A DNA stretch of 64,000 nt from positions 10,106,001 through 10,170,000 of the forward strand of contig NC_092672.1 of assembly GCF_964355755.1 (NCBI RefSeq), in the 5' to 3' direction. Below are positions 6,888 to 46,630 of this stretch, in pieces (positions within the stretch are counted from its first letter, which is position 1; each line of letters starts with the position of its first letter). Below the pieces are notes generated by a model, which was given only the letters and a program-made list of their open reading frames with translations, made no database searches and had not been told where the DNA came from. The stretch is from Antedon mediterranea. Its lineage: Eukaryota; Animalia; Echinodermata. Made by a program: the position numbers and the translations under genes.

Positions 6888-7007
6888 TTAGGCTTCATAA
6901 TGACCAGGAAAGAAGAACAGTTTTTTGGTAAGCATGGTAACAGGTGCTGGCATCTGTTTGTTACGGCCAGAAGAAGATTCAAATGCACGAGCTACTTTGT
7001 TGTTCAC
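6888..7007 (-). CDS. CASP9: Caspase last coding exon: VNNKVARAFESSSGRNKQMPAPVTMLTKKLFFFPGHYEA*
   Basis: KQMP...LTKKLFF C-terminal caspase motif; tttatag|GTG acceptor; TAA at 6890-6888. Confidence 0.95.
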   Translation of the reverse strand: MNNKVARAFESSSGRNKQMPAPVTMLTKKLFFFPGHYEA

Positions 7008-16000: not shown

Positions 16001-19000
16001 TCAAGTGTTTCTCTTAGACTAAGTGTGAATGGTGAATACGGCTACAGCTGCACAGTTGACCATGCTGATAGCCTTATGTGTTTTATTACATCCACTCACC
16101 TCCACGGCAGGCTTGGATGAAAAAAAGCTTTGGTTTACCAGTCAGGGATGGGCAACTGTCTCCAGTAAAACAATTCTGAATATCATCTACTTTGATGAGC
16201 CGTTCGTCCACACTGTACAAGGCACCATTCACACCATGAGTGAGCACGGCAATGATGAAGCAATCATACCGAGAATGATTCATTGTGCTGTAATGCCTCA
16301 ATTTTTTATAAAAGTCCTAAAAAATATTAAATTTTGAATTGAATTTTAAAATCAAGTTTTCTTTCCATAAGATTTCAATGTAACTATAAATTTAAATTAG
16401 TTTAAGGATGTGCATTTAACTGTGTTCAACTGTGCATTGGCAAAAGTGTGGATTATCATAATGCATATGAATTGCATAGTGCATTATTAATGCATAATGT
16501 ATGATGTATTATTATAATTAAATACATAATGCATGATAAATAAATTTGTACTGTATAATGTGTACCGGTAATTAATGCATAATTCATGATTTTCAGGAAG
16601 CACACAATTGATTTATATTATTCAGTAGTTCAAAGACATACATTGTACTTGAATTCTAAATCCTTTTTTGTTCAGTTGTCATACGTGTACCTAGCACCCA
16701 GTGAGAGTATGTATTTCAAGTTTACAAATTATAGGTGCTGTATGAGGTAGGAAGTGATGGTGTGTTTCTATGTAGCAGTGGTAATTGGTGTCGATGTGCA
16801 TTACTGGAAATAGAAGAATAATCCAGCAAAATTGCACCATTAAACCATATTTTGTTTCCCTTCTCTAATTCATTCAAATAGTTTGTATATTTCAAGTGGT
16901 CAAAATATAATTCAGGACAAACCAATGTTCATTTTGGTAGCTTTTCAAAACTGATAACAAATTTATATTCAAGAATTGGTTTTAATTTCAAATTTTAAAT
17001 ATTTGAAATAAATAAAAGTGAAGAGGTAAATTATTTATTGTCTTCAAGCTTAACTGGAACCAGATTACAACGAATATTAAATAAAGTAGGTAGGATCACA
17101 GGATCTAGACATAATTTGGATGACATTTGCAACAAAATCATAAGAAATAAGGCTATGAAAATATGCGACGACTCAAACCACCCTTTAAATAAACATTATG
17201 TTAAAATGAGATCAAAAAGACTAAATGTGCTGAGATCGTGCAATAGTAGGGTTATGCGATATTTTAATTCTTTTGTTCCGTATTCTATTAGACTGTTAAA
17301 TGATTTTGCATAATTTTTGAAATTTTTTATGTATTGCAGCTTTTTATTTTTTATTTAGTTAATTGTAGTCTTATGTTCATACTAAGTACATTGTTAAATA
17401 ATATATAGTATTTTTAAATATTGTAATTAATTTTTTTTATATGAAACGTTTTTATATATTTTTGTACAATTTTGTGAAAAGCACTCAAAATATTTTCCTA
17501 TGTGGACGAAATAAAGTTATCAAATTTGTATCAGATCCTCTAGGGTCTCACAGCAGTCGGCAGTGCAACGCCTACCAATATCCGGAGAGATCAGGAAACA
17601 ATATTCTACTCTTTTTGAATAGTGTACAGAGTTCTTCAACATGCCCTATGTGTACACGGGACCAATGGCTTTACGTCCCATCTAAAGGACGAGGCAATGA
17701 CAGTAAAGCATTTTGCCTAAGGATACAATCAGTATGGTACAGATGGACATGGACACATGCTTGTCCGATTGTGTTACTATCATTACACCATCACTCTCCG
17801 AACTATGGTGATCTAACAAGAAGCTGTGTTTCAACCAATATGGCCGTTAAATACTCACACTATATGTTGAATTTGTAAGATTTTCAACCTCAAATGCTAA
17901 TTGAGTAAACAAACATTCAAGCTGTCGAGCATCCACATCGGTTCCTTTTCGTAACGGCATCGATCGGAAATTACGATTGTTGACTATCAGCGCTTTCCCT
18001 CTAGGCTTTGATTTGATTGTGTAGTTCTGATGAAAAAAAAAAATTAAAAAAATCTCAGTAGTAGCATTTATAGTACAACAATTATAGCAGCTTTCTTAAT
18101 AAAGATAGTACGGTTTCTTGGGTATGACCATACTGTAGGGAGCCCTCTATTGTTTGTTGTAAAAAGAGAGAATAACATGGACATCAAACAAGACTGTTGT
18201 AACTGAGCCTACAATGTAGGGTTGTTTAAATAATGATTCAGTTCCAAAATCACGGCTACATAGTGTAGATTATCTTTGAATGTACTGTCCATTTGTAGGC
18301 CTAGCAGAAAATATTTTAAATCCATCAATTTACATTAGAATTTCTATGCTTTCAATTTAATGATATTAATTTATATATGATAAACTTTTCCTTTTCCTGG
18401 ATTTAGAGTATGAACAACTGATCGAAATACTGCAATCTTAAATGATATTGTTCGTAAAGGGCCAAAGGCATTCCGTGCATTAGCAGAGTCGTTGTTTGCT
18501 ACTGAGATGTACCATCTAGCTACACTTTTAATACCAGACCTTACTGAAGATACATTGTACGATTTAAGCTATTATGAATTTGAAAATGATACCAAAGCAC
18601 CTATGCAACCAAGTGTTGGAGACAAGCCACCTGTGCAGCAGAGTGTTGCAGAAGGCAGTGGAGATTTTAATCCCACACGCAAGTTTCCGACTGGATTTAC
18701 ATTTTAATTAATATTTTAATTGTTTATAAACTTTTACAACTACTGTTGAGGGTGCTGCATTCACAGCTGGACTCTATACATAATGTGAACACATCCTTGT
18801 ACAGTATGTATTCTATAATTTCACTGAACCAAATCTAAGAATAGTGTGAACGCAGCTAATACATATACACTACCTGTGGACTATCGGTCATTTCACTTGT
18901 ATAATTTCCTTTACTCATTTTCATTTGTAGAACTTCATCTGCAGTTTTCTGTGGCCAAGCTAAATATAGGGTGAAGAGTAATGGAAATATGTATTACAAA

Positions 19001-21389: not shown

Positions 21390-22487
21390 GATTCAGTAAA
21401 ATCTGTTGAATAAATAATTTAATTCTAATTATTATTAATTCACTGAATATTATAACAAGTTTAGAATGAGAAAACTTTTTGGGAACCTTATTCGATCAAC
21501 ATAATAATAATAACCATAATATACAGTAGTATTAATATAGAATTGATGACTTTAAAAAAAAAATACAATAAAAATAATACTGTATATATATAGATTATTC
21601 ACAATTTGATCACTTAAATTAAAGAAACACAACCATATTTAAACTCTTCTTCCTACACTTACAGTATGTATTGATCAGTAACTATATTCAGTCAGTATAC
21701 AGTACAGTACTTAACATCTATAATGCCTTTCATTAATAATTATTCAAAATGTACTGTAGTGAACGATGTCGTCCGAGCGTCTACAGTGACAGATGAAATC
21801 AGTTGATTGCGTTTTGAACCAGTCACAATAAAATCAATTTTGGATGGAGCACTGCTTTTAGATACTGTAGTGCAGGATTGTTTTTTTTTTATACTTTTCT
21901 TTTAATCTACATTTTTTAAAACCATTTGTTAAACTGAAATCATTCAGTAAATTACTGTAAAACAATATTAGTAACCTCCTATTATGACCAAAATAAATTA
22001 AAATGTTTCCTGGTCGCTGTGTAAGTTTGGAGCAATTTTATGCACTCTGGCCGCAATTCAATTTGGCTTCCTGTGTTGGTCACAGTGCATATCGGCCGCC
22101 AGTCATTTCGGCCGCCGGTTATGGAACGCCTAAAATCATGAAACGCCAAAAAGGACAAAATATGTATTGTTCATTTCGGCCGCCAATCGTCAATATTGTT
22201 AATGTATGGCACGCCTCAATTATAAAAAATGGTGTATACATGTGCCTATCGCCTGAATAGACGTGCGTATTCAAAAAGCAAGCAGCAATCAACAAAAACG
22301 ATCATACTTTTTGATTTGTATAGAGTTGCGCTATTTTACGGTCATTCGCCGGCTTCTTCTCCTGACTGAGCCCTACAACCTCTCAGCACCCCCCCCCCCC
22401 CCCCCACACACACATAACAACCACTGTGAAATAAAATAAGTTGTGTAGAAATACTTTAGTTAAAACTACTAAACTAATGATTTACAC

Positions 22488-24847
22488 GGTCTTTTGATGA
22501 TATCGGTCGCGTTTGAAATCGGTCGCCCTATTTTGTATGGAGCGGGATGCATGCTAGCGGGATATACATTTTCTTCATTTATATAGATTTAATTGATATT
22601 TTTTAGGGGCTAGATTATTTATGTGGATATTTTTTATTTGGTTATCAATCGGAGAAGGACTATGTCTTTCCAAAATAGTCATTTCTAAACACGTTTAAAT
22701 ATTAAATTAGGTAAATATTATATCAGGCATATAATAATTTACCTCCAGTTATGTGTACTGTAATTAATATATTATATAGAGAATATACGTCTGTCCTTTA
22801 TTATGCAAACAATTACGTAAAAGAGAACAATTTATTTAAAAACAATAATTGTTACAATGTATAGCCCGTAAAAAAGCCAGCGTATCCATTGTTATACTTA
22901 TGCATACTGTGGCAGATTATATCATGTCGTTAACAACATACTATTCGATCACCTAATTTTTATTTTTTTATTTTATTTACATCCGTTATGTAGGATAATA
23001 TTAAGTGTATAATAATAATTGTTGAGACAAATCACGTGTATACTTTTATTTCTAGTGTTTAAAATAGTTGTTAGTAAAAATGATCATTATATGCGGATGG
23101 TTAAAAGGCGAGTTACTGAAATAAACCCCCGAATAAGCCATATTGGGGGAGATTCGCCTTCTATGGCGTATATAAGACCTATTTTAGAATATGCTGCCCC
23201 TGTTTGGCATGGCGCTATCACTAAGGACATGTCCAAGTCTATTGAAAAGGTACAAAAGAGAGCATTGCGTATCATGCTAGGTAACAACTATTTGTGCTAT
23301 GATCATGCATTGTCTGTTACTGGTTTACCTACTCTTGTAGAGAGAAGAAACAAACTTGTGTTGTCTTTCGGGGAAGGCTTATTAAAATCCGAGCTGTTTA
23401 GAGAAATACTTCCCCCTCTTCATAAGCCAGCTCGGTCTCTCAGAGTCAACCGCTTTCTAGAAGTACCTCATTGTAAAACCAGCAGACTTAGGTCGTCTCC
23501 AGTTCCCACCATGGTGGATATAATTAATAGGCACCACTAGCTCTTTTTTAGATATGTAATAAGTGAATGTTTTAAGGTTTTTTATTCATGTATGTTTTTA
23601 ATTGTATGGTACGATATCTAATTTTATTAAGATGTTTCTATTTTTATAGCAATTTTAACTAATTTTTAGTCATTTGTAATACATTTCATTTCAGTCCTTG
23701 ACTGTCGTTTTGTAATATATTTTTATATACCGAATAAATAAATAAATAAAAATGATCGTGCAGCTGTTTCCTCTCTAACAATGCGTTATTTTGCTGACTG
23801 GGTTTCCCCTTTTTTAAAAGCACGCACTTGTTAGTGTGTCAAATCATGGACAAAACACGACGTACGATCGTTGTCCATGGCCAGGTAAAGATGACGTCTA
23901 TTACTAATAACCATACTTTTAAAACGTCTATAGGCCTCCTGCACGTGTTTTTGTGAAACGATGTATATAATTTACGTATACTGTACGTCGATACTATAGA
24001 TTTTAATTTGAAAAATATCTTTTATTTCTTTATTTACAATAATCATTTAATGTAATTAAGTAAGTAGTCTCACATAACATCCATACGACGTTCGTAAATC
24101 TAAACGTTTAAATATCAGTACCTCTTTGAGAATCGTGTCCACCTATAATTATCCATACATTATTCTCACATCTATCATTGTACATCATAGACATACTGTA
24201 GGGCTGGTAGATTGATTTATAACGGAATATTATCTATATATTTTATTATTATCCTAAACCATGCTCACGTCAGAGTGGCGGATATCGAATGCAAAAATCA
24301 TCATCATGCATCAAATTCCTGTATTGCATAAACCTCATTGAGCTGGTATCCACTTGCAGGTATAGAACGAGTTTCGTAATTAACTGTGATTAAAAAATAC
24401 GCAATAGGCGCGTCTACTTGTTTAACAATTAAATTATTATTTATTTTCAAAACCTTAAACAACGGCATGCTAAAAGAACACATTACAATTCATTCAAACC
24501 TGTAAGATAAAATGGAAAAACAAATTATTTATAAATAATGAGATAAATATTTATATTTACTGTACTTAAAAAATAACGATCGAGGTTTAAAAAAATGTCA
24601 AACAGTATTATTAGAAATTCCAATATTCAAAATTAACTAAAAACATAATGAAAATGTATCTAATGCGCCATATACAAATTAGTGCGACCAAAATAAAACG
24701 CGACCGATATCGTAACTAATAGGATAAAAAGCGTATCTAGCGGCGCTCCATACAAAATACCGGATGTTTATTTTATCGCGACCGATTTCAAACGCGATCG
24801 ATTTCAAACGCGATCGATTTCAAGCGCGACCGATTTCATCTGACACC
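22488..24847. mobile_element. Nested TIR element with GCGACCGATTTCAAAC subterminal repeats
   Basis: GGTC...GACACC ends; direct repeat ATTTACAC at 22480-22487 and 24848-24855. Confidence 0.7.
23160..23752 (+). mobile_element. 5'-truncated LINE (CR1/L2 group): 3' end of ORF2 plus tail
   Basis: YIRPILEYAAPVWH...IEKVQKRALRIM...GLPTLVERR motif; (AATA)n tail. Confidence 0.85.
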
Positions 24848-25693
24848 ATTTACACACGTCTATTCAGGCGATAGGCACATGTATACACCCTTGACAAGTA
24901 AGTAAGTAAAAATACGTTATTAACAATATTGACGATTCTGGCGGCCGAAATGGACAATACATATTTTGTCTTTTTTGGCGTTTCATGATTTTGGGCGTTC
25001 CATAACCGGCGGCCGAAATGACTGGCGGCCGAAATGATCAGACACCCTGTGTTTGGGTAAATGTAAACGACACTTGCTAGCCTATATGTATATTTATGCT
25101 ACCTACCTTTTAAATTAGTATTAGAAGACTAAGAAATTAACTTCCACTTATCAATTCATTGCAATTTTTGTACTACATAATCAGTATCAATAATGTTATA
25201 AAAGTATTGATGATTGTAGGGCCTATTTTCCGTGTTTAGCTTAGGCCTACTTCTACTAGCTTGGTAGGCCTAAATAGGCCTCCTCCTACTGGACTCTAGT
25301 ATAATAGCTAGCCTTAGTAGAGGCCTACCAATTGAATACAATAATAGAATACACTCACTACCAAAACTAGGCTAGCAGTAAATTACTAGGGCCCTAGTGT
25401 CAGGTGGCACAAAAACACATAACAATTTAGTAGTAGTTATGTCATTGGGCTAGGACACATCACCAACAAATGTAGGCCTCTTAGGCATAATTGGTCTAGG
25501 CCTAGCTAGGCCAGCCTACCCAGTCCTACTACTAGGCGGGAGCTAGCCTAGCTAGGCCTAGCCCTACCGGATAAGGGACGGGGATAATCACTCTGAGTCT
25601 CATGGTTAAATAATAATAAGCTACCCTACCTAGCTAGGCTTAGGCCTAGCCCTCCCTAGCTATAGACTAATGTATTGCTAAAACAGCATTTAC

Positions 25694-25860
25694 CTGGAAC
25701 AATTCTTTAAAAATCAAGCCAATTAGATATAAATTAAGATATTTTATAGGATTTTTTCTGGCTTTTTGTTTCTCAGAATCGAATGTCCTCCTTCCTTTTC
25801 TTCACTAACAGCGCCACCAACCATTAAAATTAGTCTTATGGCACGTCAAATAGGACATTA
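25694..25860 (-). promoter_or_regulatory. Probable non-coding first exon and proximal promoter of the caspase
   Basis: Strong donor CCAG|GTAAAT at 25694/25693. The block, including CAGCGCCACCAACCA and an ACGTCA (CRE-like) site, is conserved in the paralogue at 38680-38850. The TSS is not determined. Confidence 0.55.
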
Positions 25861-27269
25861 TACAGTGATTCAATTGTTACAAGAGTCGATGAATTGATAC
25901 AGTTTTTAGCTTAAACAATTCATTTGTCTATATTCTGTAATGTTCTAATTGTTGTCAAAGATAGTGTAGTTGTTATTATTAGTGTACAAACAATAAGACC
26001 AATACACAAATTCATTCATTTCATGCTGATTACACTTTATTGAACTACAGTATTACAATGTCATCTTCTTAGCCTTTTTTTGATGTATTTTATTTTTTAA
26101 GTTCAGATTTACAGTTAAAAAAGGCAAACGATGGAAAATAAAATCCATGACAAAGTAACATTACAATGAATATATTTATCATTACAATAAATGTCCCTGT
26201 TCTTAGTGTACTACTGCCAAACTGGTCACTTACATATAACATTAACATTAAAAAGGGAAAATTGGCATTAAAGTGTAAAGTGCAAATGAGTAGTGGGTGG
26301 ATCTCAAATACAAATAAAATAATAAATTGCAGTCCTTACTCAGTATGAATGTTTATAATAATATATTGATTTAACACAGCCCACCCCCACCCTTCCCCTT
26401 CCTTTGAGACACTCTGCAAAATATGTCACGTTTTCTACAACCAACCCGTACTCAGGGGACATGTTTGAGTGTGCTAAATGGTTGATTCAGGGGTCACCAA
26501 AAACATCAAAGCATTTTATTTATTTATTTCGTTATCTATTTAATACAAAAATTGATATGATAATTATGAAAATAATTATGATACTTCCTCTGGCTTGACA
26601 ATGACAGTTTTCATGGTGAAACATTCAGAATGAACCCCTTTAAAAATAATTGGGTGCTGCAGGATTTACTGATTTTTAACACAAACCAAAAACCTATTCC
26701 TAATAAAAAATAGTATTTTGGTTTTTCGTTCCATTTGGAGTAATGAAGGCTGTTGAAATTACACTTATTCAAACATATAAAAATATAAACTTTGTATATG
26801 AAGATACACATGACCATTTCTCATCCAATAAAAATATTTTTAAAATTTGCTTCAATAATTATATTATTTATATTATAGTAAAATAATTAATAGTAATTAA
26901 TACTATCTCTAATGTTTTCTTCTTTGCACTATCCTGTGGTGTATGAAATGGCACTGCATTTTGTAAACAAGGCAACATTACCAGAATTACTAAAACTAAT
27001 TACAGAGCTAGACTGGTAGAACAATTTAATTTATCCTAACATGGCAATTGTTTAGCATAGTTCAACCTGTATATAGGGTTAGGGTTAAAACTAACACTGA
27101 ATCAATATTGATATATATATATATATATATATCTCTACCAAGCTACCTTCTTTGTTTTCTACTCTTATTCAGACTCCACCCTGGCTCCCTTTGTTATATT
27201 TCTTTTATTCCTGTCCACCCAGGCAGCACTTGCCAGCTTTATACTATGACGTTATCCATATTCCTTCAC

Positions 27270-29127: not shown

Positions 29128-32100
29128 TTAATGACGAGCGATGGTGATTGTTGTTACTTTATTCTGCTGGTCTGCTGTTATGTTGCACTCGACTGGAAAT
29201 AAACTTCTGAATGCATCGACACCTAGTGACAATGATTTAAACACTTCATGATCACAAATGAGTTGTTTGCATTCCTTTGTTAATAACACCATATGTTCAC
29301 TGTCGAAGAAAATTCAAAATAGTAAAGTATGAGAACTTTTGAAATAATTTAAACAAGGGTAATGTTTACATTATGAGCGGTCTGAACGGTTTCATTTAAA
29401 AAGTTTAGAAAATTGGTATATTAGAACTCTAGTATTAAAAGTTATCACTAACACCCGTCTGAAACCGCAAAATGGGATGTCACCTAAACCTGCTCAGTAA
29501 AACAATTGGCTACAATCAAATCAATGTTTTCTCTATGTTTATACTATGTCTATGTATGTTGTGAATATGCCCTTTCAAAAGAAAGTGGACAGGTAAATAG
29601 AGAAGGAGCAGGGTGTGGATAAGAAGTTGGTAAGAAGGATAAGAGGTTTATTGAATGATAAACAAATCTGCAATTGTAATATGAATACAGATCATATTTT
29701 TTGTGGTGTTGTTTCAGACTATTTAGTTTACAGAATTAAACTTACACTGTGGGATCAATACCACAGATGATTTGTTTCACAACTTTAATGCTTTTGTCAG
29801 GAGGTTGAGACAGAATCTGTAGCAAAACAAAATTATTATCAATATGTTAAAGCAACATGTACTTCCGGAGCCTGGGTGTAATTACTTTGGGAGACAAGTA
29901 TGTAACTGGAATGTAGCCTAGTTTTAATTATGTTAGTTTAGGTTGTAATTATAATGTAGGTAGTCTAGGATGTACGGTAATTATAATGTAGGTAGTCTAG
30001 GATGTAATTATAATGTAGGTAGTCTAGGATGTACGGTAATTATAATGTAGGTAGTCTAGGATGTAATTATAATGTAGGTAGTCTAGGATGTAATTATAAT
30101 GTAGGTAGTCTAGGATGTAATGTAATTATGTTAGTCTAGGATGTAATTATAATGTAGGTAGTCTAGGATGTAATTATAATGAAGGTAGTCTAGGATGTAA
30201 TGTAATTATGTTAGTCTGGGATGTAATTATAATGTAGGTAGTCTAGGATGTACGGTAATTATAATGTAGGTAGTCTAGGATGTAATTATAATGTAGGTAG
30301 TCTAGGATGTAATGTAATTATGTTAGTCTGGGATGTAATTATAATGTAGGTAGTCTAGGATGTAATGTAATTATGTTAGTCTATTATTAGTTAATTATTA
30401 TAATTAATAAAGAATAGACTAGGTTGTAATTATAATGTAGCCTAGGATCTAATAATATATTATATAGATTAACAAGAACATATTGTAAAGCATCGGGTGA
30501 AATCCTGAATATCAAATAATTAATTTGATACAATAAAGATTACTCTAGTAGCTAGATCAACTATGCACTTTGAGGTCCAGAGAATTTGACTTCAGAAATT
30601 GGTTTAGGATGGTCAAACAATCATTTTTGGCTTGGTTACACAATATTCAGTCTAATGGCACATTTTAGTCAACAATGACTGGAAATGCCATTTCTGACAT
30701 TTGATTCACAACCCAAGGCATGTACAGTATGTATCTCCGTAACTACTGGTCGTAGACACTTCAATTTGCTCTTAAATTGTTTGAAATATACATTTTGTTA
30801 TTTGTTACACATTTTGAAAAATGTTATAAAAGGTCAAAGGGTCAGGGTTATATGAACAAATATAAATAGGTACTTGTATCTTGGCAACCACTGGTCGCAG
30901 CAAGTTAATTTTGGTCTCAAAATGTTCAGAAGGCAGACAATTCAGTCTAATGGGACATTTTAGTCAAAAATAATCAGAAATGCAATTTCTGACCTTTGAC
31001 CCACATACTAGGGCATCTTCATATCTATGTAAGTACTGTTCGTAGAAACTTAAATGTTGTATCAAATTGTTCGAAATATATATATTTAGATTCATTCTAA
31101 TAGAAAATTTGGTTAAATGATGACCAGAAATACTATTAATTACTAATGTTTCAAACAAAAAACATATCTGTATACAACTTATCCTTGGACAGTAATGTTA
31201 TGTAATAACTTATGCTTAAAAATTGTTTCATTATAGGATTTAAAACAAATTTTTGTAATTGTATTTTTGCTTATAATAATGCTAGAAAGTATTGTTGACC
31301 CCCGAGGACGATCAAACATTTTGATAGAAACATCGAGCCCAAGAAGTAACTTACCGAATTCATCCTAATAAACGCCTATTGGTGTTTGGTCTTATAACCT
31401 TTCAACCTGACCTTTTGACCTTTCACCACATTTTCAAAATGTGTAACAAGCCAAAAATGATTGTTTGACCATGCTAAACCAATTTCTGAAGTCAAATTCT
31501 CTTGACCTCAAAGCTCATACAAAAGTTTATCTACAGTAACTACTAGAGTAGATGAGGAAATCTGTGAGAACGAGCAAAAGCCGCCTCAACCAAGATTCAA
31601 ACTTGGAACTTTCTGCTTTAATAATAATTTGAAGAAGTTACCTCTAGGCGTGTAAGATTCGTTGTTTTTAATTCTGGTTTTTGTTTAAACATATCCACTT
31701 CGACATTAGTGAAGAGGAATGTTGCACCATCATGCTCTTCAGTAATTTCATCAGCCTTTTCACCCCAGAGTTTTAATTTAATTGTTGAATTTGTGTTTTT
31801 TAAAACCATATCACGGCGTTGCCAAGGGGTAATTTTTTCTCCAATTTCTTTTTCTCCGATCTGTTTTAAAAAAAAACAAAAAAACATCAGTATAACAGAA
31901 GGTTTGTTAATAGTCTTTTGGAAATATAATATATAGCACCCTCTATAATTTTTCGAAAAATGTTAAGATATTTGCAATTCATTAAAAATATTTTTTAGCA
32001 CAACATGCACCCTCTATGTGTGTTGATATCGTCTTGAAGTTTCAATTTCAACAACCCTGTGAGGAATTAGATATCACATGTTATAATCATTTCGACATTG

Positions 32101-35100
32101 TATTATTAGCGATAATGCCGCAAAAACATCCTCCAGTTACCAAATTTTACCCACCCCAATAGGACAATATCGTGTTCATCGTAATATGCAAAAAAAAATT
32201 CTGAAATAATAAAAAACCCAAAACTTTGATTTATGCGAACTTTTTTATAAACGATAAAATAATTCAAATTGTTTTGCTTTTATTTATTATATATTATTAT
32301 ATATTTACCGTACTGACGCGGGTATAAGCCCATACTCGGGTATAAGCCCACCCCCGACTTTTGACTAATTTTCATGAAAAATGAGGCACTCGGGTATAAG
32401 CCCACCCATTAATTCGAAGATCTACAGTGTGTGTCGTAATACATATTTTTGTATTTGGCGACGTCCATACACCGAATACACCTACCTTTGATCATAACCA
32501 AGCTAGGCTAATATACGCTAGGCCATAAGAGGCCTAGCGGTCCTGTTTTGTTTACACTCCATCGCGGTCGAAGATCGCTTCACACACGACGCTACATACA
32601 AGTCGCCAAAACGGAAAACCACTATTTGGTATCGGCTGCCATAAACAAGCTTATTAAATTTCTTTGGTACATTTCTATTTAACGAACATTGTATACTTGC
32701 TTTTCTGCTTGATAAATTCTTGTTCAATTGATGTTTAAAATAAGATATTCTACGATAAATTACATGAACTATAAGCTTAATTAATAATCGTGTATTTAGA
32801 GGCAACGTCGTACACGTGAGGGCGCTCGCTTGCATGGTGGAAATACACAGTGTACATGTGCAGTTTTTGACGATCTGCATTTTTGGATCCTCGGGTATAA
32901 GCCCACCCCCCAAACTTGACGTGATTTCATGTTCGAGGGGGGTGAGCTTATACCCGCGTCAGTACGGTATATATTCCATAAGAATTTCATATAAGAAAAC
33001 ATAGTTTTAATCATTGAATTGACAAAAAACAGGAATTCCAAAATAGCTGTAATGACGTCACATGACATCATTAATATGCAAATTACCTTTTTTTACTCCC
33101 AACTGTAGACCAACCTTTTGCCCACCACACACCACAAAAATAATTACAAAATTATCTCATTTAGTATCTTTTATGACAGTCAGGGTTCGAAAATCACCCT
33201 AACAATTTGCAAGTATATTTTGTTTTTTTTCTAGTTACAAATTTAATAGTTATAATGTTTGCTGGTTACTATTAATGTATGGTTGGATATTGATATGAAA
33301 TAGTTTGAATGATTTTGGAAAACTGATTGAAAACAAAATAATATTGTAACTTACCATTGTAACTTTTCCTTGGATAGTGACTCGTCTTCTTTTGGGGCTT
33401 CTCACTGCCTCCTCAATGCTCACCTCATCTGGAGTAAAAAATTTGTTCAATTTTTCTTGTGGGATTTCAAAATCATTGTTTCCCCCTTGAAACACCTGTA
33501 AAGTAAAAAAAAGTAGTAATGATTTGAATACAAATTGGTTCAGTAATTTTGGGTGTCTAAATACCAGAGGTAAAGTTCAACTGCACAGTATGTGAATGTG
33601 GAGTTTGACTGCCAGAGGATTTAAGAGAAATCAATAATTAAATGGTAATCATTTACCTTGGATGTTCCTTTTTTAATTATCAATTCCTGTGTGTTTTCTT
33701 TGAAACGTAGTGTTGCATTTGTTACTATTTTGTAGTCATCTTTTGTAATCTTTTTAACAAATGGAACGTTTTTTGCTGATACTATTCCTCGTAAATATTC
33801 TGATTTGTCATTAAAGGCATGAAATTCCCAGTAGGTTCCATGGTCAGCAGGAGGTGTTAAAACATATATGTATATCATTTCCATATACTAAAAGAAAGAA
33901 TTGATCGTTATCAAATCATGTGATCAAATGAACACTGTATCACATTGTACATTGGGTGTGTAGTGTGTAGGAACATTTTTAAGTTAATTTATTTGATCAG
34001 TCACAGAGTCACAGTGCCACATGTTACAGTTACATATTTAAAAAAAAAGTAGAGTGACTCTACAATATGACACGCTCTTCAGGATAGTATTTCATCTGTA
34101 TATTATTATAAGCTGGGTTAAAAACATTCTGTTAGGGTATGTTCAGATCCATGGAGTTATGCTTTCGTATCGCAAGCAATGTCACATTATAATTATCATA
34201 ACTGTAACAGCAAACTAATGCTTTCTTTAGAAACTGAAGAAGTCCAATTTGGGCGAGCATCTGGTATGCAGGTTGGAGGTCAAAATCGTTGATGCATGAC
34301 TTTCATATTGTAAGCATCGTTCGCTAATCTTCTGCCTTGAGATGATGAACGAAAGATCAGTGTTGTAAGAGTAAAGTAATCTTTTCCTGGTTCAAACCTA
34401 TGGAGTTGTACAATATGAAAGCACAACTCCGTAGGTCTCAACAGGCCCTTAGTGTTGGAATCCAGATGAAATTTAAAATTGATCAGATCTCACCCTTGAT
34501 ACATGAATGTGTGTTATGCATTATGAATATTTTGAAGAAAATATAAAAGCCCATGGGCTATTCAAAGGGGGACGTTTGTAACTACAGCAATATGCCCATT
34601 TTTTATAAAAGCCACTAGTACTTAAGGGACACTTTTCCTATACTCACTTTGTCTTGTTGAATTGCAGTGTTTGAAGAAACTAAAGATAAGAGAGAAAAAA
34701 AGTAATGGAAAAATACTGCAATAAAAACATTTTCAAAACAATATCATGAGTAACAATAACAATTTTTAAAATCTGTATGGCCAAACGATAAAAGTATGCA
34801 TTTTGTCAGTTCACCACTGAAGTCCATTTAGAATTAAAGTATGGAGAATACACATTCTTAGCAACTGAAGTTATAGTACTGTACTGTCAAAGACTATCAG
34901 AAAAAAATCGTTGATTGCTTTCTTCTGAACTTATTTCACAGCATACAACAACAACCAAGCCACGGACTGGCCAAACAGCTGAACCAACATAATGAAGCAA
35001 ATATATGAGAGTCTATGGTTGAGGCAGAATTAAGATTTCTTTTTAGGTAAAAATTGTGATAAACCACTGAAATTATCAAGCAAAACTTCATCACAGCATG

Positions 35101-35752
35101 GGTCCCTTAATAACGCACATAGCATAATGTCACTGTGTCGTGATCGTATCCATACACAGTACTGTAGGTAGTTTTTAATACAGTATATTTTGATTACATT
35201 GCATTCACTAAGAGTAACGCATAATTTTGTCTTTTCCCTTAAACAGCAAGTGTGTAGTACACTACATGATCCACTAACTTTTATGTTGGTTCAATAGAGT
35301 TTGCTATGTTTTTCGGAGGTTTGCAGGGTTTAGCAATTAATTTTTAACCAAAAAATGATGTTTTACTCCAAAAATAAGTAGTTAACAAAAACAATTTAAC
35401 ATTAAAAAAAAAATTGAAATATTAGGTGTGTAGTACACTACACGATTCACTAGCTTTTATGTTGGTTCGATGGGGTTTGCTATGTTTTTTCGGAGGTTTG
35501 CTGTGTTTAGCAATACCCCCAGTAAGTTTTGCCAACTTCAAATTATTCTTCAGATTATAGTACAGTTAGAAGTAGTTAACAGGATTACAATGGCAGAAAA
35601 TTCAAAAGAACAACAGTCTTTCTAGATAAATCAAAAAAATTAATAACAGAGCTATGATATACATTACCATCAGCCAAGACTTGTCTTGTGGCATTCCAAT
35701 TTCTACCCCGCTTCTGCAGCACCTTGCTTGTCTCCAACTGGCTGGCTTTCAT
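29128..35752 (-). CDS. Tandem OB-fold nucleic-acid-binding protein (RPA/SSB-like, HIN-200-like), ~316 aa. Exons 35752-35668, 34679-34648, 33887-33657, 33495-33355, 31860-31642, 29816-29746, 29299-29128
   Basis: All junctions are GT-AG with consistent phases (1,0,0,0,0,2); 951 nt, no internal stop. OB signature RRVTIQGKVTMIGE...RRDMVLKNTNSTIKLKLWGEKA...GATFLFTNVEVDMFKQKPELKTTNLTRLE. The two short 5' exons are less certain; an alternative start is Met 33884. Confidence 0.75.
29925..30450. repeat. Minisatellite (TAGGATGTAATTATAATGTAGGTAGTC and shorter variants) in OB-gene intron
   Basis: Directly visible tandem array. Confidence 0.95.
30541..31550. mobile_element. ~1-kb TIR element inserted in a SINE remnant
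   Basis: TACTCTAGTAG...GAGAATTTGACTTCAGAAATTGGTTTAG is inverted at 31440-31550. Confidence 0.7.
32306..32969. mobile_element. Tc1/mariner/pogo-type MITE
   Basis: TACCGTACTGACGCGGGTATAAGC...GCTTATACCCGCGTCAGTACGGTA; TA ends; repeated GGGTATAAGCCCA motifs. Confidence 0.85.
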
Positions 35753-35885
35753 TACTGAAATCATAAAAACTTAACATATAATTTATCTTCAGTGAGGTCT
35801 GATATCTATATAAAGTATGGTTAATTCTGACATAGGCGAGCACAATGCAAAAACCTCGGTACAAATCTGCGCCTTGGATACCTAC

Positions 35886-36210
35886 CTTATCTATCTCAGA
35901 TGTACCGCGAAACGTAGATTTGATAACATTAATTTTCACATCGACGCTATTGTTCCATATTTCTATCTTAGGAAGATATTATAAAGGGTTTTATAGGAAA
36001 TTTTCTGATTTCAATCGGTAAATTTTAACTCTACGCGCAGTAGAAGTAATTTCCGGGTTAACGGTCAGGTGTGTCAATCACCTTGCAAGTTCCCTGCATG
36101 GTTGGTGTCAACCAGGGAGTTGTAAAACAACTCCCTGTTTCAACTAAGTTGGTGCTTGGTGGCGATAGCCATTTTGGTTTTTTGTTTATTTTCGGACCGC
36201 GCGTGTGAAG
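35886..36210 (-). promoter_or_regulatory. Putative non-coding first exon and promoter of the OB-fold gene
   Basis: Donor AAG|GTAGGT at 35886/35885; locally CpG-richer sequence with TTCCGG (ETS-like) and GCCATTTT (YY1-like) motifs. Confidence 0.35.
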
Positions 36211-37093
36211 GTATAGTACTGTAGTACATAAAGATCAAATTAAATATATTCATAAAAAATTGGAGTATTATTGTGGGAAATAATTATATAAAATTACATC
36301 GAGAGAATTGATGATAAGAGCTTTTGTTTAAGATCGAATGAAACCCCGATAGCCGAGTTGTTGAGTAAGCTGCCAGGACTCATGGATGGATACTTCTGCC
36401 CATATTGCAAGCCGTCTAAAAGGTCTTCCTTCTTAGGCCAAAACGACTCACTGTGTTGCGGAATAATATGTATTAACTATACCGATTAGAATGGTATTTA
36501 TTTGAATAAACGCCCGGAACACCTCCCCAATAAAACATCAATTAAAATAATTATCACCACTCTCCTCCCCCCCCCCCCCTCCAATACCATCTAATTAACG
36601 CCCATCCCAATTTATACACACAATATTGTATTATATTTATAACACAATTATACTATTTTTTAGTAGATTTCATCGGACTGTTATCTACAATTTACCAAGC
36701 ATTTGTTATTCTTTTTTACCACTTTTCATATCTACAATAAACACTATACGTAAAACGCTATTAATCATCTAAAACACTGTGAAACAGGTTAGTGAGTAGG
36801 TTTAGTTTTACGAATATCAAAAGCATTTAAATAATGGTAACCGATCGAAATCGTCCAGGCCAGAATGTCCTTCTAAAACTTTTTACCAGAGTCACTATCA
36901 TTCCGAGAACCATGGTCTACACTTCCTAGAGGGGGAGCAAGCGAAGCGAGCTCACCCTCTAGTTAATATAAAGTATAGCTAAATGCTGAGACCCAGTAAA
37001 AACAAATGATTGCCGTTTGGTGGCAGCTAAAGGATTGATGCAACGAAATATAATCCACAGCGATTTAAGATGGTGTTTATTATCTATTATTAT

Positions 37094-37863
37094 CTATAAC
37101 ACCCTGAGACTTCTTGTTGGAAACTTGCCTTCTGCAACACTCTGCTGCACAGGTGGCTTGTCTCCAACACTTGATTGTTTGGTATCATTTTCAAATTCAT
37201 AATAGCTTAAATCGTACAATGTATCTTCAGTAAGGTCTGGTATTAAAATTGTAGCTAAATGGTGCGCCTCTGCAAATAATGACTCAGCTAGTGCACGGAA
37301 TGCCTTTGGCCCTTTATGAATAATATTATTTAAGATTGCTGTATTTCGAGCAGTTGTTCCATTCAGACCCTATAAAAAAAGAAATTATGAGAAAAATATT
37401 ACAATTTGACTTTGGAAATTCATCTGTGCACAAGAGATGATTTCTGTTGTTTTTTTATAACATTTGTTAATATTTTGAAAACATAAAAGACATTCTATGC
37501 CTAGTATCCAGATTAATATGTTGGCATAAATGGTTTTTATAAAATCAATTTTTCTCATTTTTCCAATTTTAAAGATTGTAGCAAAGGAAAAAAAGTGGTA
37601 ATTTCCTAAATTAATTTATAATTTTGTAGTAAAATACTGTATGTTTAGTTTAATTACAAGGTAACCAGTATTATATTTCAATTATTTAAGAACCTGTACA
37701 TCTTTTGTATTATTGGGTTAACAATCCTACAAACCAAGAATTTTTCTTGTTCAGATGGCTTAAAAATTTGTCTGGTCACTAATTCGTTCAAGACATCAAT
37801 GTGCATATCGTTAATTAATGACATACGATTCTTTCGCAGAATCTTCTTGTGTTTAGCTTCCAT
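37094..37863 (-). CDS. CARD-only paralogue of the caspase, ~134 aa (exons 37863-37735 and 37369-37094); possible 5' half of a CARD-OB fusion
   Basis: MEAKHKKILRKNRMSLINDMHIDVLNELVTRQIFKPSEQEKFL|GLNGTTARNTAILNNIIHKGPKAFRALAESLF...KFPTRSLRVL*. Splice sites of the first coding intron are preserved; deletions of 3, 9 and 24 nt are all in frame; no catalytic exons follow. Confidence 0.75.
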
Positions 37864-38679
37864 GATTCAGTAAAATCTGTAAATAAATAATTTAATTCTA
37901 ATTATTATTAATTCACTGAATATTTTAACAAGTTTTATTAGAATGAGTTAACTTTTTGGGAACCTTATTCAATCAATATAATAATATTACCATACAGTTA
38001 GTGTTAATATAGTATAATGATGACTTATGACTTAAAAATACAATAAAAATAATACTGTACAGTATGTGTATAGATTATTCACAATTTGATCACTTAAATT
38101 AAAGAAACACAACAATATTTAAACTCTTCTTCCTACACTTACAGTATGTATTGATCAGTAACTATATTCAGTCAGTATACAGTACAGTACCTAACACCTA
38201 TAATGCCTTTCATTAATAATTATTTAAAAAGTACAAGTCAGTCACGATGAAATCAACTTTGGATGGAGCACTGCTTTTAGATACCGCCTAGGCCTAGATA
38301 CTGTAGGCCTAGGCCTAGTACACGATTATTTTTTTTATACTTTTCTTTTAATTTACTTTTTTTTTAAACCATTTGTTGTAACTGGAATCATTTTAAAAGC
38401 ATATTAGTAATTACAGTAAGTACTGCAAATGTAATCTAGGCCTAGGCCTAGTCCTACCGGCCAATCACTCTTCTCGGCTCGGGGTTAAGCTATGCCTACT
38501 AGCCTACACTAACTAAGTACAGAGGCTAGGCCTAGGCCTACTACTACTACCAACAGGGCCCAGCCCAGACAGGGGTGTCACGAAACCTAAGATCACGAAA
38601 GCTAAGACCCAAGAACTAAGATTACAAATAAACACTATAAATCTAGTATAGACTAATGTATTGATAAAACAGCATTTAC

Positions 38680-38850
38680 CTGGACCAATTCTTTAAAAAG
38701 CAAGCAAATTAGATATAAATTCAACTACTGTATTTTAAAGGATATTTTCTGGCGCGGCTTTGTTGCTTTGTTGCTTTTTCCTTTTCTTTACTCCACTAAC
38801 AGCGCCACCAACCACTAACATTAGTCTTTATGGGACGTCAAAAGGGACAT
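38680..38850 (-). promoter_or_regulatory. Duplicated non-coding exon 1 and promoter of the CARD-only paralogue
   Basis: Homologous to 25694-25860; donor CCAG|GTAAAT intact; GACGTCA site. Confidence 0.5.
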
Positions 38851-39026
38851 TATAATTCAATTGTTACAAGAGTCAAGTGTTGATGGTACTTTATGAATTG
38901 ATACAGTTACTAGCTTAAACAATTCATTTTTGTCTATATTCGTAATGTTCTAATTGTTGTCAAAGATAGTGTAGTTTTTATTATTAGTGTACAAACAATT
39001 TAATAGACAAATTCATTCATTTCATG

Positions 39027-40529: not shown

Positions 40530-40796
40530 ATTACACTTTATTGACTAGAGTATTACATTATACAATATCTTCTTAGCCTTTTTTGATTTATTTTTTTTAT
40601 TTTTAAAAGTTATTCATTATAAAAGTTTTACAGTTAACAAATGCAAACGATGGAAAATAAAATCCATGACAAAGTGACATTACAATGAATATATTTATCA
40701 TTACAATAAACTTCCATGTTCCTAGTTTAGGAACATTGCCAAACTGATCACTTACATAACATTAAAAAAGGAACAGAAAATTGGCATTAAAGTGTA

Positions 40797-41520
40797 ACTC
40801 CATTAATAAATTATACCCATCCATAAAGGTGGTGAGGTCTCAAATATCAATAACTATAGGCCCATCTCCATCTTGCCAACTATTTCAAAACTACTTGAAA
40901 GAATAGTTTATGATCAAACTATTTCATTTCTTACAAAGTTTAACATCCTCAGCAATTCCCAGTTTGGTTTTCGTTCCCAACATATCTACAATACATGCCG
41001 TCCATCATTCAATCCATAATATTTTGTCTGCTATTGATAATAAACAATTTACTGTAGGAGTTTTTATTGACCTGTCAAAGGCTTTTGATTGTATTTCTCA
41101 TAATATTTTAATTAACAAGCTACGTTTCTATGGTATAAGAGGTATACCACTTCAGTGGTTCGAAAATTATTTAAGTAACAGCCAGACATCAATTTACATC
41201 AACAATCAATGATATTGCCTCTGAGCTGCGGCCAGTTTCGTGTGGTGTTCCACAGGGATCCATCCTTGGTCCGCTTTTATTTCTGTTATTTATTAATGAT
41301 TTAAATTGTATTAGTGATTGTGCTGAAATTGTTATGTTTGCAGATGATACAAGTTTATTTATTAATCATAAGGACATCTACCAAGCTATTATTTTAATGA
41401 ATCGTGAACTTACTAAAATTGCAAACTGGTTAAAATCTAATAAGCTTTCGTTAAATATTAAAAAAACCAAATTTATTATTTTTCGTTCAGTAAATAAACT
41501 AATCCCCCCCCAACATTCCT
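40797..41520 (+). mobile_element. Frameshifted LINE reverse transcriptase fragment
   Basis: NYRPISILP, FIDLSKAFD, GVPQGSILGP, MFADD. Confidence 0.9.
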
Positions 41521-41571
41521 AAATTTATAATTCGGTTACATTTAGGAATATATTTAGTTATTACCATAATA

Positions 41572-42010: not shown

Positions 42011-43924
42011 GTATTATAAATTATAAATATTTTATTTTATAATCATAAGCTTGTTTCAAATCCTATATAAATAATCTCGATTTTCTTTGATGAGTTCAAA
42101 ATACGCGCACACATTTTCGAACGGTATGAAATCATTCGGAAATTAAATGTTCATATAAAAATAATAGTAATATCAAATTATGTAAATAAATGATTCACAT
42201 CTTTGCCTAAAAAAAAAAAATAGTTTAGGCCTACTGTTTTTTATAAATTCAAAAGCAAATGAGTAGTGGAGTGGGTGGATCTCGAATACAAATAAAATAT
42301 ATTGCATGCCAAAAATAATAATAAATTGCAGGCCTTACTCAGTATGAGTGTTTATAATAATACAGTATATATATTTAACACCACCCCAGCCACCCGCTCC
42401 ACTTCTGCAAAATGAGGAAAAAATAATGTTTTCTACACCCAACCTGTACTCAGAAGACACGTTTGAGTGTGCCAAATGGTTGATTCAGAGGTCACCAAAA
42501 ACATCAAAACATTTTTATTTATTTATTTTGTTATCTATTTAATACAAAAATGGATATCATGATAATTATGATAATAATTATGATACTTCCTCTGGCTTGA
42601 CAATGACAGTTTTCATGGTGAAACACTCAGAATGAACCCCTTTAAAAATAATTGGGTGCTGCAGGATTTACTGATTTTCAACAACTTACAAACACAAACC
42701 AAAAACCTATTCCTAATACAAAATAGTATTTTGGTTTTTCGTTCCATTTGGAGTAATGAAGGCTGTTGAAATTATTCAATTAATTAATTAATTTAAAAAA
42801 TAAAATATTTGTATATGAAGAAAAACATCCAATAAAAATGTTTTTAAAATTTTCTTCAATAATTATATTTTACATTATAGTAAAATGATTAATAGTAACT
42901 ATCTCTAATGGTTTGCTTCTTTGCACTATCCTGTGGTGTATGAAATGGCAAAACTGCATTTTGTAAACATGGCAACATCACCAGAATACATTAAGTACAA
43001 AATACTGTACAATAAAACTAATTACAGAGCTATACTGGCAGGATAACTTAATTTTAAAAATATAATATTTGTATCTGAAGATCAACATGAACATTTCTCA
43101 TCCAATAAAAATGTTTTTAAAATTTGCTTCAATAATTATATTATTTACATTATAGTAAAATAATTAATAGTAATTAATACTATCTCAATGGTTTGCTACT
43201 TTAAACTATCCTGTGATGTATGAAATGGCAAAACTGCATTTTGTAAACATGGCAACATCACCAGAATACATTATTGCAGTAAAGTACACTACTGTACAAT
43301 AACATTACTAAACTAATATTACAGAGCTAGACTGGCAGGATAATTTAATTCAACAAAAAACATGGCAATTTTTTAGAATCTTTTCTTTTAAAACATAACC
43401 TGTACATAAAAAAAAACTAAACATAATTAAGCGTTTTCATTACAACACAAGCATCTAGAAACAGCGATAATGTGTATCTAGTGCGGCGGCCCATACAAAT
43501 TAGCGCGACTAAAATAAAACATGACTGATATCAACCGTAACTAATATGATAAAAAGCGTATCTAGCTAATGCTGGACTGAAATGTCCTGTATTTGTCTGC
43601 CTCTCCCGGCCCCACCCTTAGATCTGTTTGTATGTTTCCTACAATGCTTACATACATAAGCACTGAATCAATATTGATATAAATCTTTTGTAAAAATAAT
43701 GAAAGGTTCTATGGTATTTCTTGCATTTTTAATAAAACGAAAAAACTATGCAATTTGTTCATGATTTAGTATGAAAAGATATAATCTATAATTTAAAAGC
43801 AGTTGAACAATACAACACAACTTAAATTGATTACAACATTCCCAGTGTTTTAGTGGATACACGTTCCTATAAGGTATTGTGCTCTTGTTGTTGCCCATAA
43901 CAGGAAAAGCAATCCACTGAAACT

Positions 43925-45826
43925 TAATGACGAACGATGCTGATTGTTGTTACTTTAGTTCTGCTGGTCTGCTGTTACGTTGCACTCGACTGGAAATAAA
44001 CTTCTGAATGAATCGATGCCTAGTGACAATGATTTAAACACTTCATGATCACAAATGAGCTGTTTGCATTCTTTTGTTAATAACACCATATGTTCACTGT
44101 CGAAGAAAATGAAAAATAGTAAAGTATGAGAACTTTTGAAATAATTTAAACACGGGTAATGTTTACAGTATGAGCGGTCTAAAAGTTTCATTTAAAATGT
44201 GTAGAAAATTGGTATATAAGAACTCTAGTATTAAAGATGTATTGTTCCTAAAAACACAGAAAATGAAGATTAATATAAAAACATCTACAAAATTACAAGA
44301 TAAAATTATCTTCTTGACTTCCTGTTGTACTGGATGATACCGGAGGGAATAAAGGATTTAGCAAATCGATTTGTTTTCACACTGAGGAGCCTCAATCTAC
44401 CACTTGGATTAAGTTGGTCTATGATCACTTTGTGCAGAGGATGAGAGGCATGCGTTCAAAATCTTTCTGGAGGCGTTCTATGTGCACATCGGTAAAGAAA
44501 GGCAGTTCCAGACCAATCAAATCCCAATTGGCTGCTGACAGCCAATTTTACCATTTTATGGTTTAAATTACACTTGTTTTTAAGGTAAATATATATTTTT
44601 TTTTCGATCTAATTTTTTGTAAAAGTGAATAACTATTATTATGTAACAATAAAATTGCTTATTCAACAAAAAAAATTTTTTTCAGGGGGACAATACATCT
44701 TTAAAAGTCTATCCACAACACCAATATGAAACTGCAAAATGGGACATCACCTAACCTGCTCAGTAAACTTAGATTTACATAAAGCAATTGGCTACAACCA
44801 GATGGATGCTTTCTATATGCTATTGTGAATATGCCCTTGGAATTCTTGTAAAGTGTAAACACATAAATAGAGGAGCAGGGCATTGATAAGATCATATATG
44901 GCAAACAGGTAGCTGTAGCAATGTTTTAAACACTTTATGAACACAAAGAACTCTAGAATTAAAAATGTATTGTTCCCCAAAAACATGGAAAATAGGCCAT
45001 TTGCAGCTTTAATAGGGTATTGCTAAACTGCGCAAACCTAAAAAAACCTGCGCAAACCTCCTCCAAATCACTTATTATTGGTTCTATCATGACAAGGACT
45101 ATCATAGCAAGTAATTAATGAAAAAAAAAATGAGGAGGAGGTTTGCGCAGGTTTTTTTTCAGGTTTGCGCGATTTACACTGTAAAATCTGACATTTTACC
45201 CAAAAAAATGATGGTTTTCGCCAAAAAAAAAAGCCAACTTACAGCAATTTCATAATTTTGTTTTCATAAATTATTTGCTATGATAATCCTAGTCATGATA
45301 GAACCAATAATAAGTGATTTGGAAGAGGTTTGAGCAGGTTTTTTTTAGGTTTGCGCGATTTACACTGTAATATCTGACATTTTTACCCAAAAAATGATGT
45401 TTTTCGCCCCACTTACAGCAATTTCATAATTTTTTTTTTCATAAATTACCTGCTACGACAGTCCTGGTCATGATAGAACCAATAATAAGCCATTTGGAGG
45501 AGGTTTGCACAGGTTGTTTTTTAGGTTTGCGCTTGGTTTGCGTAGTTTAGCAATACCCCTTTAATAAAATTAATCACTTTAGTTGAAAAAAAACACTTTG
45601 TTTTCAATAATAAAAAGACAAAATAAACAGAAGAGGATTATTGAATGATTATTGAATGAATGATAAATAAATCTGCAATTGTAATATAAATACAGGTCAT
45701 ATTGTTTGTATCATTGTTTCAGACTACAGTATTTAGTTTAGCGAATAAAACTTACACTGTGGGATCAATACCATCGATGTTTTGTTTCATAACTGGAATG
45801 TTTTTGTCGGGTGGTTTAGACAGGTT
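43925..45826 (-). pseudogene. 3' remnant (last two exons, 45826-45756 and 44096-43925) of a second OB-fold gene copy
   Basis: Paralogous to 29816-29746 and 29299-29128. A 1-nt insertion gives a premature TAA at 43955. Upstream exons were not found; LINE sequence starts after ~46630. Confidence 0.75.
45013..45560. mobile_element. TTAA-flanked TIR MITE (Kolobok-like) with ~170-bp internal repeats; related remnant at ~35250-35520
   Basis: GGGTATTGCTAAACT...AGTTTAGCAATACCCCT flanked by TTAA. Confidence 0.75.
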
Positions 45827-45944
45827 CTGTAGTACAGTAATTGCAAGCAAAACAAAATTATTATCAATATGTTAAGGAAACGTGTACTTCGGGAGCCTGG
45901 GATGTAATTACTTCGAGAGAAAAGAATGTAACTGTCTAGAATGC

Positions 45945-46630
45945 AGCCTAGGTTTTAATTATGCTAGTCTAGGATGTAATTATAATGTTAGTCTAACATG
46001 TAATTAAAATGTTAGTCTAAGATGTAAATTATAAAGTTAGTTTAGAATGTTTATAATATATAAGTCTAGGATATAAATATAATGTTGGTCTAGGTTGTAA
46101 TTATAATGTAGGTAGTCTAGAATGTAATTAAAATGTTAGTCTAGGTTGTAATTATAATGTTAGTCTATGTTGTAATTATAATGTAAGTAGTCTAGGATGT
46201 AATTATGTTAGTCTAGGTTGTAATTATAATGTAGGTAGTCTAGGATGTAATTATAATGTAAGTAGTCTAGGATGTAATTATGTTAGTCTAGGATGTAATT
46301 ATAATGTAGGTAGACTAGGATTTAATTATGTTAGTCTAGGATGTAATTATAATGTAGGTAGTCTAGGATGTAATTATGTTAGTCTAGGTTGTAATTATAA
46401 TGTAGGTAGTCTAGGATGTAATTATAATGTAAGTAGTCTAGGATGTAATTATGTTAGTCTAGGTTGTAATTACAATGTAGGTAGACTAGGATTTAATTAT
46501 GTTAGTCTAGGATGTAATTATAATGTAGGTAGTCTAGGATGTAATTATAATGTAGGTAGTCTAGGATGTAATTATAATGTAGGTAGTCTAGGATGAAATT
46601 ATGTTAGTCTAGGTTGTAATTAAAATGTAG
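45945..46630. repeat. Paralogous minisatellite in duplication copy B
   Basis: Same unit and same position relative to the OB exon. Confidence 0.95.

Follow-up and report, generated by a model that had tools for sequence, protein, structure and literature searches.

A caspase-derived CARD copy with an in-frame splice route to a tandem-OB gene: a candidate fusion in the crinoid Antedon mediterranea

The stretch of DNA analysed here, a 64-kb window (positions 10,106,001 to 10,170,000 of contig NC_092672.1; 128 kb counting both strands), encodes proteins with exact database matches labelled as the crinoid Antedon mediterranea. It carries a caspase gene, a partial duplicate of that gene that keeps its CARD exons, and, between the two, a five-exon gene for a protein with predicted tandem oligonucleotide/oligosaccharide-binding (OB) folds. 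Positions below are those of the window, and features lie on the minus strand, read from high to low coordinates, unless stated otherwise. In that direction the order is the last two exons of a second OB copy (45826-43930), a duplicate of the caspase promoter region plus its three leading exons (38876-37103), the five-exon OB gene (33887-29128) and the caspase (25893-6891). We suggest, tentatively and at somewhat short of an even chance, that the CARD copy is spliced from a newly made GC donor at 37129 through a linker exon at 34679 to the OB exons, which would give a CARD-linker-OB protein of 411 amino acids (aa).

The parent caspase gene (6891..25893, with coding exons from 21389 to 6891) encodes a protein of 453 aa with a CARD and a C14 domain (XP_071945612.1; Pfam CARD, E 1.6e-9). 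A contig of sequencing run X1 joins its 5' non-coding exon to coding exons 1 and 2 by splicing. X1 therefore holds RNA, and the promoter region copied at 38876-38680 derives from an active gene. The same contig confirms the exon numbering of the preliminary description of this DNA, and it reads through the caspase's own AAG|GCAGTG site, which it does not use as a donor. The linker of the caspase, at 20640-20720, contains two imperfect repeats of 30 nucleotides (nt), KAPMQPSVGD and KPPVQQSVAE. At these repeats the X1 contig is 27 nt shorter than the paralogue and about 36 nt shorter than the caspase, a shortfall that may be either an in-frame length variant or an alternative splice.

The CARD copy retains both the promoter region and the first donor. 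Its copy of the promoter region and 5' non-coding exon (38680..38876) differs from 25893-25694 by 27 substitutions in 188 nt, and the donor CAG|GTAAAT is intact at 38679. The first coding exon (37735..37876, with the ATG at 37863) gives a partial Pfam CARD match (E 0.0094) and ends in a phase-0 donor, TTG|GTTTGT. The second runs to the GC donor (37129..37369) and contains in-frame indels of 3 and 9 nt. No frameshift occurs in the 370 coding nt that precede the GC site, and all indels (3, 9 and 24 nt) are in frame. From the non-coding indel rate, 9 frameshifts would be expected in these 370 nt (P 1e-4), or 6 if a converted tract is left out (P 2e-3). That tract is the 3' half of the second exon, and because it differs from the caspase at just 1 of 116 nt it suggests gene conversion. 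A second copy of caspase coding exon 4 is absent from the window, and tblastn found no second match there for the catalytic exons.

The preliminary description had proposed that a deletion created a GC donor in the paralogue. Alignment to the caspase, which has AAG|GCAGTG at 20644/20643, bears this out: a real 24-nt deletion, flanked by a 3-nt microhomology (GCA), made AAG|GCAAGT at 37129/37128, in phase 1 (37123..37131). The new site agrees with CAG|GTAAGT at 7 of 9 positions, that is, a GC donor of otherwise strong consensus of the U2-type GC-AG class, whose consensus and compensation are described in PMC3167603. Table 1 of that paper also provides a precedent, a deletion-made CAG/GCAAGT donor in NF1. 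The motif [AC]AGGCAAGT is found twice in the 128 kb. When deletions were simulated in this exon, 13 of 11,453 distinct ones yielded MAG|GCRAGT, four of these in phase 1, as did two of the 221 with at least 3 nt of microhomology. The GC site is an event of about 0.1-1% per deletion, though one picked out after the fact. Scored with small, self-made donor and acceptor matrices (12 GT training donors; the penalty at donor position +2 not counted), its flanks reach 7.6, which tops every GT and GC site in 37369-36900 (the next scores 3.0) and all 12 training donors.

The ancestral donor, meanwhile, has decayed. In the caspase it is AGG|GTAATG at 20593/20592, in phase 1. The weakened GT donor that had been described for the paralogue, AGG|GTGTTA at 37103/37102 (37097..37105), is indeed there; indels of +1 and -2 have moved it to phase 0, and it scores -1.1, below all 12 training donors. 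The 26 nt behind the GC site thus hold two frameshifts and the lost donor, a pattern that on its own has P 0.13.

The acceptors at 35754 and 34679 had been assigned to exons of the OB gene. This assignment was wrong, since both lie in relics of caspase coding exons 2 and 3. The first (35613..35823) goes back to an older copy of CARD exon 2, of which it preserves the 3' half in decayed form; it contains the 35754 acceptor and has a donor, ATG|GTAATG, at 35667. It aligns with a score of 110 against 28.5±4.1 for shuffles (0 of 300 reach it; nhmmer E 3e-9), and differs from the caspase by 22% substitutions and several frameshifts. The 5' half and acceptor of this relic have been replaced by a high-copy repeat (35824..36900) with a summed contig depth several hundred times that of single-copy pieces, and neither alignment nor nhmmer found homology to exon 2 beyond 35823.

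The second relic is a 32-nt exon running from phase 1 to phase 0 (34648..34679), which corresponds to caspase coding exon 3 (18959-18874). Over 34725-34634 the sequence aligns with the acceptor and first part of that exon, with a score of 61 against 28.4±4.7 for shuffles (0 of 300); as a window-wide nhmmer search gives just E 0.72, its identity rests partly on its expected position. The exon is 9 nt shorter than the matching 41-nt stretch of the caspase. Despite 23% substitutions it has kept the ancestral phase-1 acceptor, and a new donor in phase 0, AAA|GTGAGT where the caspase reads AAA ATG AGT, leaves it in frame with the OB exons. Since both relics are about 22-23% diverged, an older duplication either preceded the younger CARD copy or was later overwritten by it. 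Homology of the relic introns to the caspase introns was not accepted, as 73, 48 and 4 of 100 shuffles reached the respective scores. An AT-rich intron match at 36808-36610 (0 of 50 shuffles) was set aside because nhmmer did not recover it.

The three joins put forward in the preliminary description are all in frame and open: from the GC donor to 35754 (440 aa), from the GC donor to 34679 (411 aa) and from the GT donor at 37103 to 33887 (409 aa). The other three donor-acceptor pairings tested close early, at 132, 146 and 137 aa. A CARD-OB fusion is therefore permitted by the sequence and better motivated than when it was first put forward; what tempers it is that the database OB model has no CARD and that a CARD-only product is nearly as likely. 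Because the exon at 34679 descends from the phase-1 linker exon of the caspase, the route from the GC donor to 34679 copies the exon plan of the caspase, with phases 1 and then 0 as in that gene and with OB exons replacing the protease exons.

In the order of events that we infer, an older duplication would have brought the 5' part of a caspase, up to and including linker exon 3, in front of the OB exons, with the join in an intron, and a younger or gene-converted CARD copy would then have been placed upstream. The repeat would have removed the acceptor from the older copy of exon 2, which would then be skipped. The in-frame 24-nt deletion could then have made a stronger phase-1 donor, after which decay would have set in across the following 26 nt and at the old GT donor. 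The CARD copy would be transcribed, the GC donor used and 34679 chosen as the acceptor. In the resulting protein the tandem OB folds might bind DNA, and the CARD might recruit, or compete with, the neighbouring caspase. A single history of this kind, a tandem-duplication chimera followed by a switch to a GC-AG intron, would explain why the indels keep the frame, why a new donor is followed by decayed sequence, and why the exon-3 relic still fits the frame of an OB gene that is itself intact.

The OB gene itself is well preserved. Its first coding exon (33657..33887) has a phase-0 acceptor and an ATG at 33884, and the last codon of exon 2 (33355..33495) is the ATG at which a 154-aa database model begins. 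Exon 3 (31642..31860) encodes the second OB fold (Pfam REPA_OB_2, E 0.002) and has a 100% match in XP_071944601.1; it is followed by exon 4 (29746..29816) and by the last exon, with the stop (29128..29299). The natural start is the ATG at 33884, giving 276 aa, and this methionine lines up with Met1 of four full-length homologues. An acceptor precedes the start codon by 3 nt, so the OB gene requires an upstream exon. All five exons are intact and full length relative to homologues (275 of 276 aa aligned, 29-31% identity), the frame is unbroken where about 10 frameshifts would be expected, and the last exons have a ratio of nonsynonymous to synonymous substitution rates (dN/dS) of 0.49, which is not significant. 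The absence of the expected frameshifts from both the CARD and the OB frame argues that both genes were constrained until recently.

Among 1.84 billion representatives, 27 proteins match the 154-aa OB protein, at least one of which (P0015) is a spurious bacterial repeat protein. The named members of the family come from a crinoid, two sea cucumbers, Lineus and Priapulus, and the full-length members have 269-282 aa; this is an invertebrate family of three-domain proteins of about 270 aa. Pfam points to RPA/SSB, a search of PDB sequences returned archaeal SSB and RPA and no HIN, an Atlas search returned RPA-like neighbours, and Pfam HIN matched none of 40 family members. The single-sequence model of the window's 154-aa protein was unusable (predicted local distance difference test, pLDDT, 33.6), and we used the model of a crinoid homologue, P0034 (pLDDT 91.7). 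Ranks 1-8 in Foldseek are all HIN domains (E 8e-11 to 7e-10). In VIA the first rank is the HIN domain of p205 (Z 15.1, root-mean-square deviation 5.6, 178 residues aligned), with Teb1 (Z 14.5) and RPA70 (Z 14.1) tied with HIN within 1 Z unit, at identities of 12-16%. A viral fold search gave just matches of the baculovirus LEF-3 type, at a TM score of about 0.3. The OB protein is thus predicted to have a tandem-OB nucleic-acid-binding fold of the RPA/HIN class, and we claim no HIN ancestry for it.

Two members of the family, P0045 from Holothuria and P0042 from Apostichopus, have the OB protein directly behind Helitron Rep/helicase sequence (Helitron_like_N/PIF1) in predicted gene models, whereas other members stand alone; they are 2 of the 45 proteins covered, and the two whose neighbourhoods are visible. 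At the locus itself, tblastn for a Helitron Rep/helicase across the 64 kb gave just the OB exons, and none of five hairpin-CTRR candidates for a Helitron end in the window was convincing.

Several observations weigh against the CARD-linker-OB product. The database model of the OB gene, XP_071944601.1, is a separate protein of 154 aa that starts at the ATG closing exon 2 and has no CARD. When the paralogue's second exon was compared with proteins of 155-2000 aa, the caspase was the sole match, 1 of 76 candidates, which is a weak blank for a fused protein. No death-fold Pfam family was found in any of the 40 OB homologues scanned (P0036 and P0040 fell outside the scan), nor in the precomputed families of the 9 matches that a further search retrieved from 2984 candidates. 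A GT donor at 36955, behind the read-through stop of the second exon, could compete with the GC site, and the linker-exon donor at 34647 scores just 0.8 with the self-made matrices. Among 156 AG sites the acceptors at 35754, 34679 and 33887 rank 4th, 8th and 30th; this score and these ranks carry little weight either way because the matrices are overfitted. To these are added a possible poly(A) signal behind the CARD frame, a dN/dS of 0.99 for the CARD copy against the caspase (123 codons), and a low contig depth over the segment, each of which bears on one of the alternatives. Almost as likely as the fusion is a reading in which the paralogue makes a CARD-only product, as human CARD16/17/18 do, with the GC site a coincidence or a minor route and the OB gene transcribed separately, perhaps with the relic exons as its 5' untranslated region. 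With the old donor lost, the second exon would read through to a TAG at 37096-37094, closing a 134-aa CARD-only open reading frame (ORF), and on to the new poly(A) signal, an AATAAA at 37081 that is absent there in the caspase (37076..37096). The AATAAA begins 13 nt past the stop, and its chance of occurring within 40 nt is about 7%. The preserved CARD frame would fit such a gene, as would a database in which the OB protein has its own entry and the CARD copy has no long product. At the primate CASP1 locus CARD-only genes are reported to have arisen by segmental duplication and gene conversion (PMC11630849). A CARD-only gene would, however, leave three things to chance: a GC consensus in phase 1 (0.1-1% per deletion), linker deletions of 9 and 24 nt that both keep the frame, and an exon-3 relic that is likewise in frame. 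U1 binding upstream of a poly(A) signal tends to suppress its use, and here the U1-binding site lies 47 nt upstream of the AATAAA.

We consider it unlikely that the segment, once functional, is now silent or decaying, a presence/absence variant of the population from which neither product is made in meaningful amounts. The dN/dS of about 1 and the 5'-truncated database OB model would agree with this, as would the instability of the locus, where CARD exon 2 occurs four times within 20 kb. The depth of long contigs points the same way: over the OB gene and CARD copy it is 130-167 in run X2 against 246-266 over the caspase, and 17-19 against 41-46 in run X3. X2 and X3 are DNA-like runs of one sample in which depth does not equal copy number (X4 and X5 are less clear); the half depth suggests that the segment is present on one haplotype, as a presence/absence variant. 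Against silence, neither the CARD frame nor the OB frame is broken and the canonical splice sites are preserved, whereas long neutrality would predict 6-10 frameshifts, so that any silencing would have to be recent. A fusion by another route seems very improbable to us, whether from the GC donor to 35754, with the exon-2 relic exonised in a new frame (440 aa), or from the GT donor at 37103 to 33887 (409 aa). Both frames are open, 35754 is the nearer and, at 4th of 156, the higher-ranking acceptor, and the relic donor at 35667 is intact. But 35754 falls inside formerly coding sequence and alone among 17 listed positions (15 of them exact acceptors) has an AG within -20..-4, and the donor at 37102, at -1.1, scores under all training donors. 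Splicing from the GC donor to 34679 and a CARD-only product can coexist as isoforms, and all the likelihoods given here are judgements.

The region of about half the caspase-region contig depth in X2 and X3 extends over 28900-37900. At 28998, in the region of the last OB exon, the letter of the other copy is 2-3 times deeper, which is consistent with a haplotype lacking the segment of CARD copy and OB gene. No paralogue junctions were seen in the contigs of X1, one presumed RNA run; we do not count this as evidence, as the animals may have lacked the segment. At 80% or above, the caspase contig is the sole X1 contig on 36950-38000, and the bin of the last OB exon has no X1 cover.

Comparison of the window with itself shows a tandem duplication, 20641-30456 ~ 37126-46630, whose copies differ by 8-14% substitutions in their non-coding parts and by several insertions. 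The second copy of the last two OB exons (43666..46630) belongs to this duplication and lies upstream of the CARD paralogue; no 5' OB exons for it were found inside the window, and its copy of the last exon (43930-44096) carries a 1-nt insertion that cuts the frame short by about 11 codons. Both units also contain, in the third OB intron ahead of exon 4, a minisatellite built on a 27-bp repeat (29934-30433 and 45948-46630), which marks the upstream limit of detectable duplication. False duplication, with two haplotypes assembled in tandem, fits poorly with the full depth of the caspase and half depth of the paralogue in X2 and X3, and also with copies that are 9-14% different and carry several insertions.

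Several other features mark the locus. An inverted copy of caspase coding exon 2, 97.6% identical, lies within caspase intron 3 on the plus strand (18404-18691). It stops at sequence equivalent to 20607, nearly where the CARD paralogue starts to diverge from the caspase, and the shared end point may hint at a fragile site. An element with long inverted arms occupies 9094-11219 (9094-9589 against 10152-10636, 96%), and a partial copy of it, 87-89% identical, lies in caspase intron 2 (19243-20323). In and around the duplicated unit are four ORF fragments, at 39007-40392 (+), 40907-41522 (+), 47417-49042 (-) and 23019-23540 (+), which from their translations we take to be of long interspersed element type, both reverse-transcriptase-like and PHD-finger/esterase-like ORF1. 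A tRNA-Asp-like sequence with an unusual ATC anticodon (28547-28618, minus strand), within a very high-copy repeat, is probably the head of a short interspersed element.

The broadest interpretation of these data is decidedly unlikely in our estimation: that a crinoid independently built an AIM2-like DNA sensor, in which a CARD taken from a caspase was joined, by way of a new GC-AG intron, to a domesticated tandem-OB protein of Helitron type with HIN as its nearest solved fold, beside a caspase that it could activate. That would also make this invertebrate OB family, borne by Helitrons, a candidate relative of mammalian HIN. DNA sensors combining a death fold with tandem OB folds are reported just from therian mammals in the account of PMC3458909. 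We found no literature that describes an invertebrate death-fold-OB fusion or links Helitrons to HIN, in a search whose coverage mostly excluded subscription journals. If a CARD-OB product is made in this echinoderm, it would be a young and datable convergent assembly, in which duplication relics and splice-site turnover are still readable. If the product is CARD-only, a caspase decoy comparable to CARD16-18 would have arisen independently, a result of modest interest.

Chimeric genes made by tandem duplication are a known general class. The locus resembles them in having its junction in an intron, the 5' part of one gene joined to the coding exons of its neighbour, and compatible phases. It differs in that duplication took place two or more times and that the intron would have changed to the GC-AG type.

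RPA-like genes carried by Helitrons are reported from plants, zebrafish and a sea anemone (PMC4683698). P0045 and P0042, behind Helitron_like_N/PIF1, resemble these accessory single-stranded-DNA-binding genes, whereas the window has no Rep/helicase remnant or clear Helitron end. Since the OB gene looks low-copy and was in place before the 9-14% diverged duplication, it is probably domesticated or stranded.

With the PYHIN or ALR proteins (AIM2, IFI16, p204) the fused protein, if made, would share a death fold, a linker and tandem OB folds, and HIN domains top the structure searches with the P0034 model. In contrast, PYHIN proteins have a pyrin domain (PYD) where the upstream domain here is a caspase-derived CARD, a third beta domain follows the OB folds here, Pfam HIN has no match, and Teb1 and RPA70 tie with HIN in structure. 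PYHIN genes are reported just in marsupials and placentals (PMC3458909), and PMC9334734 reports none for Aplysia. Lacking a pyrin domain and a HIN profile match, the crinoid candidate would be an analogy to PYHIN and not a member.

The likeness to CARD16/COP1, CARD17/INCA and CARD18/ICEBERG concerns the duplication itself. In both cases a neighbouring caspase has been partially duplicated in tandem, promoter included, with loss of the protease domain, and the crinoid copy has the signs of gene conversion (1 of 116 nt) and, on read-through, the stop after the CARD. The crinoid locus differs in its independent origin, from a different caspase and in an echinoderm, and in offering an in-frame splice route from the CARD copy to the downstream gene.

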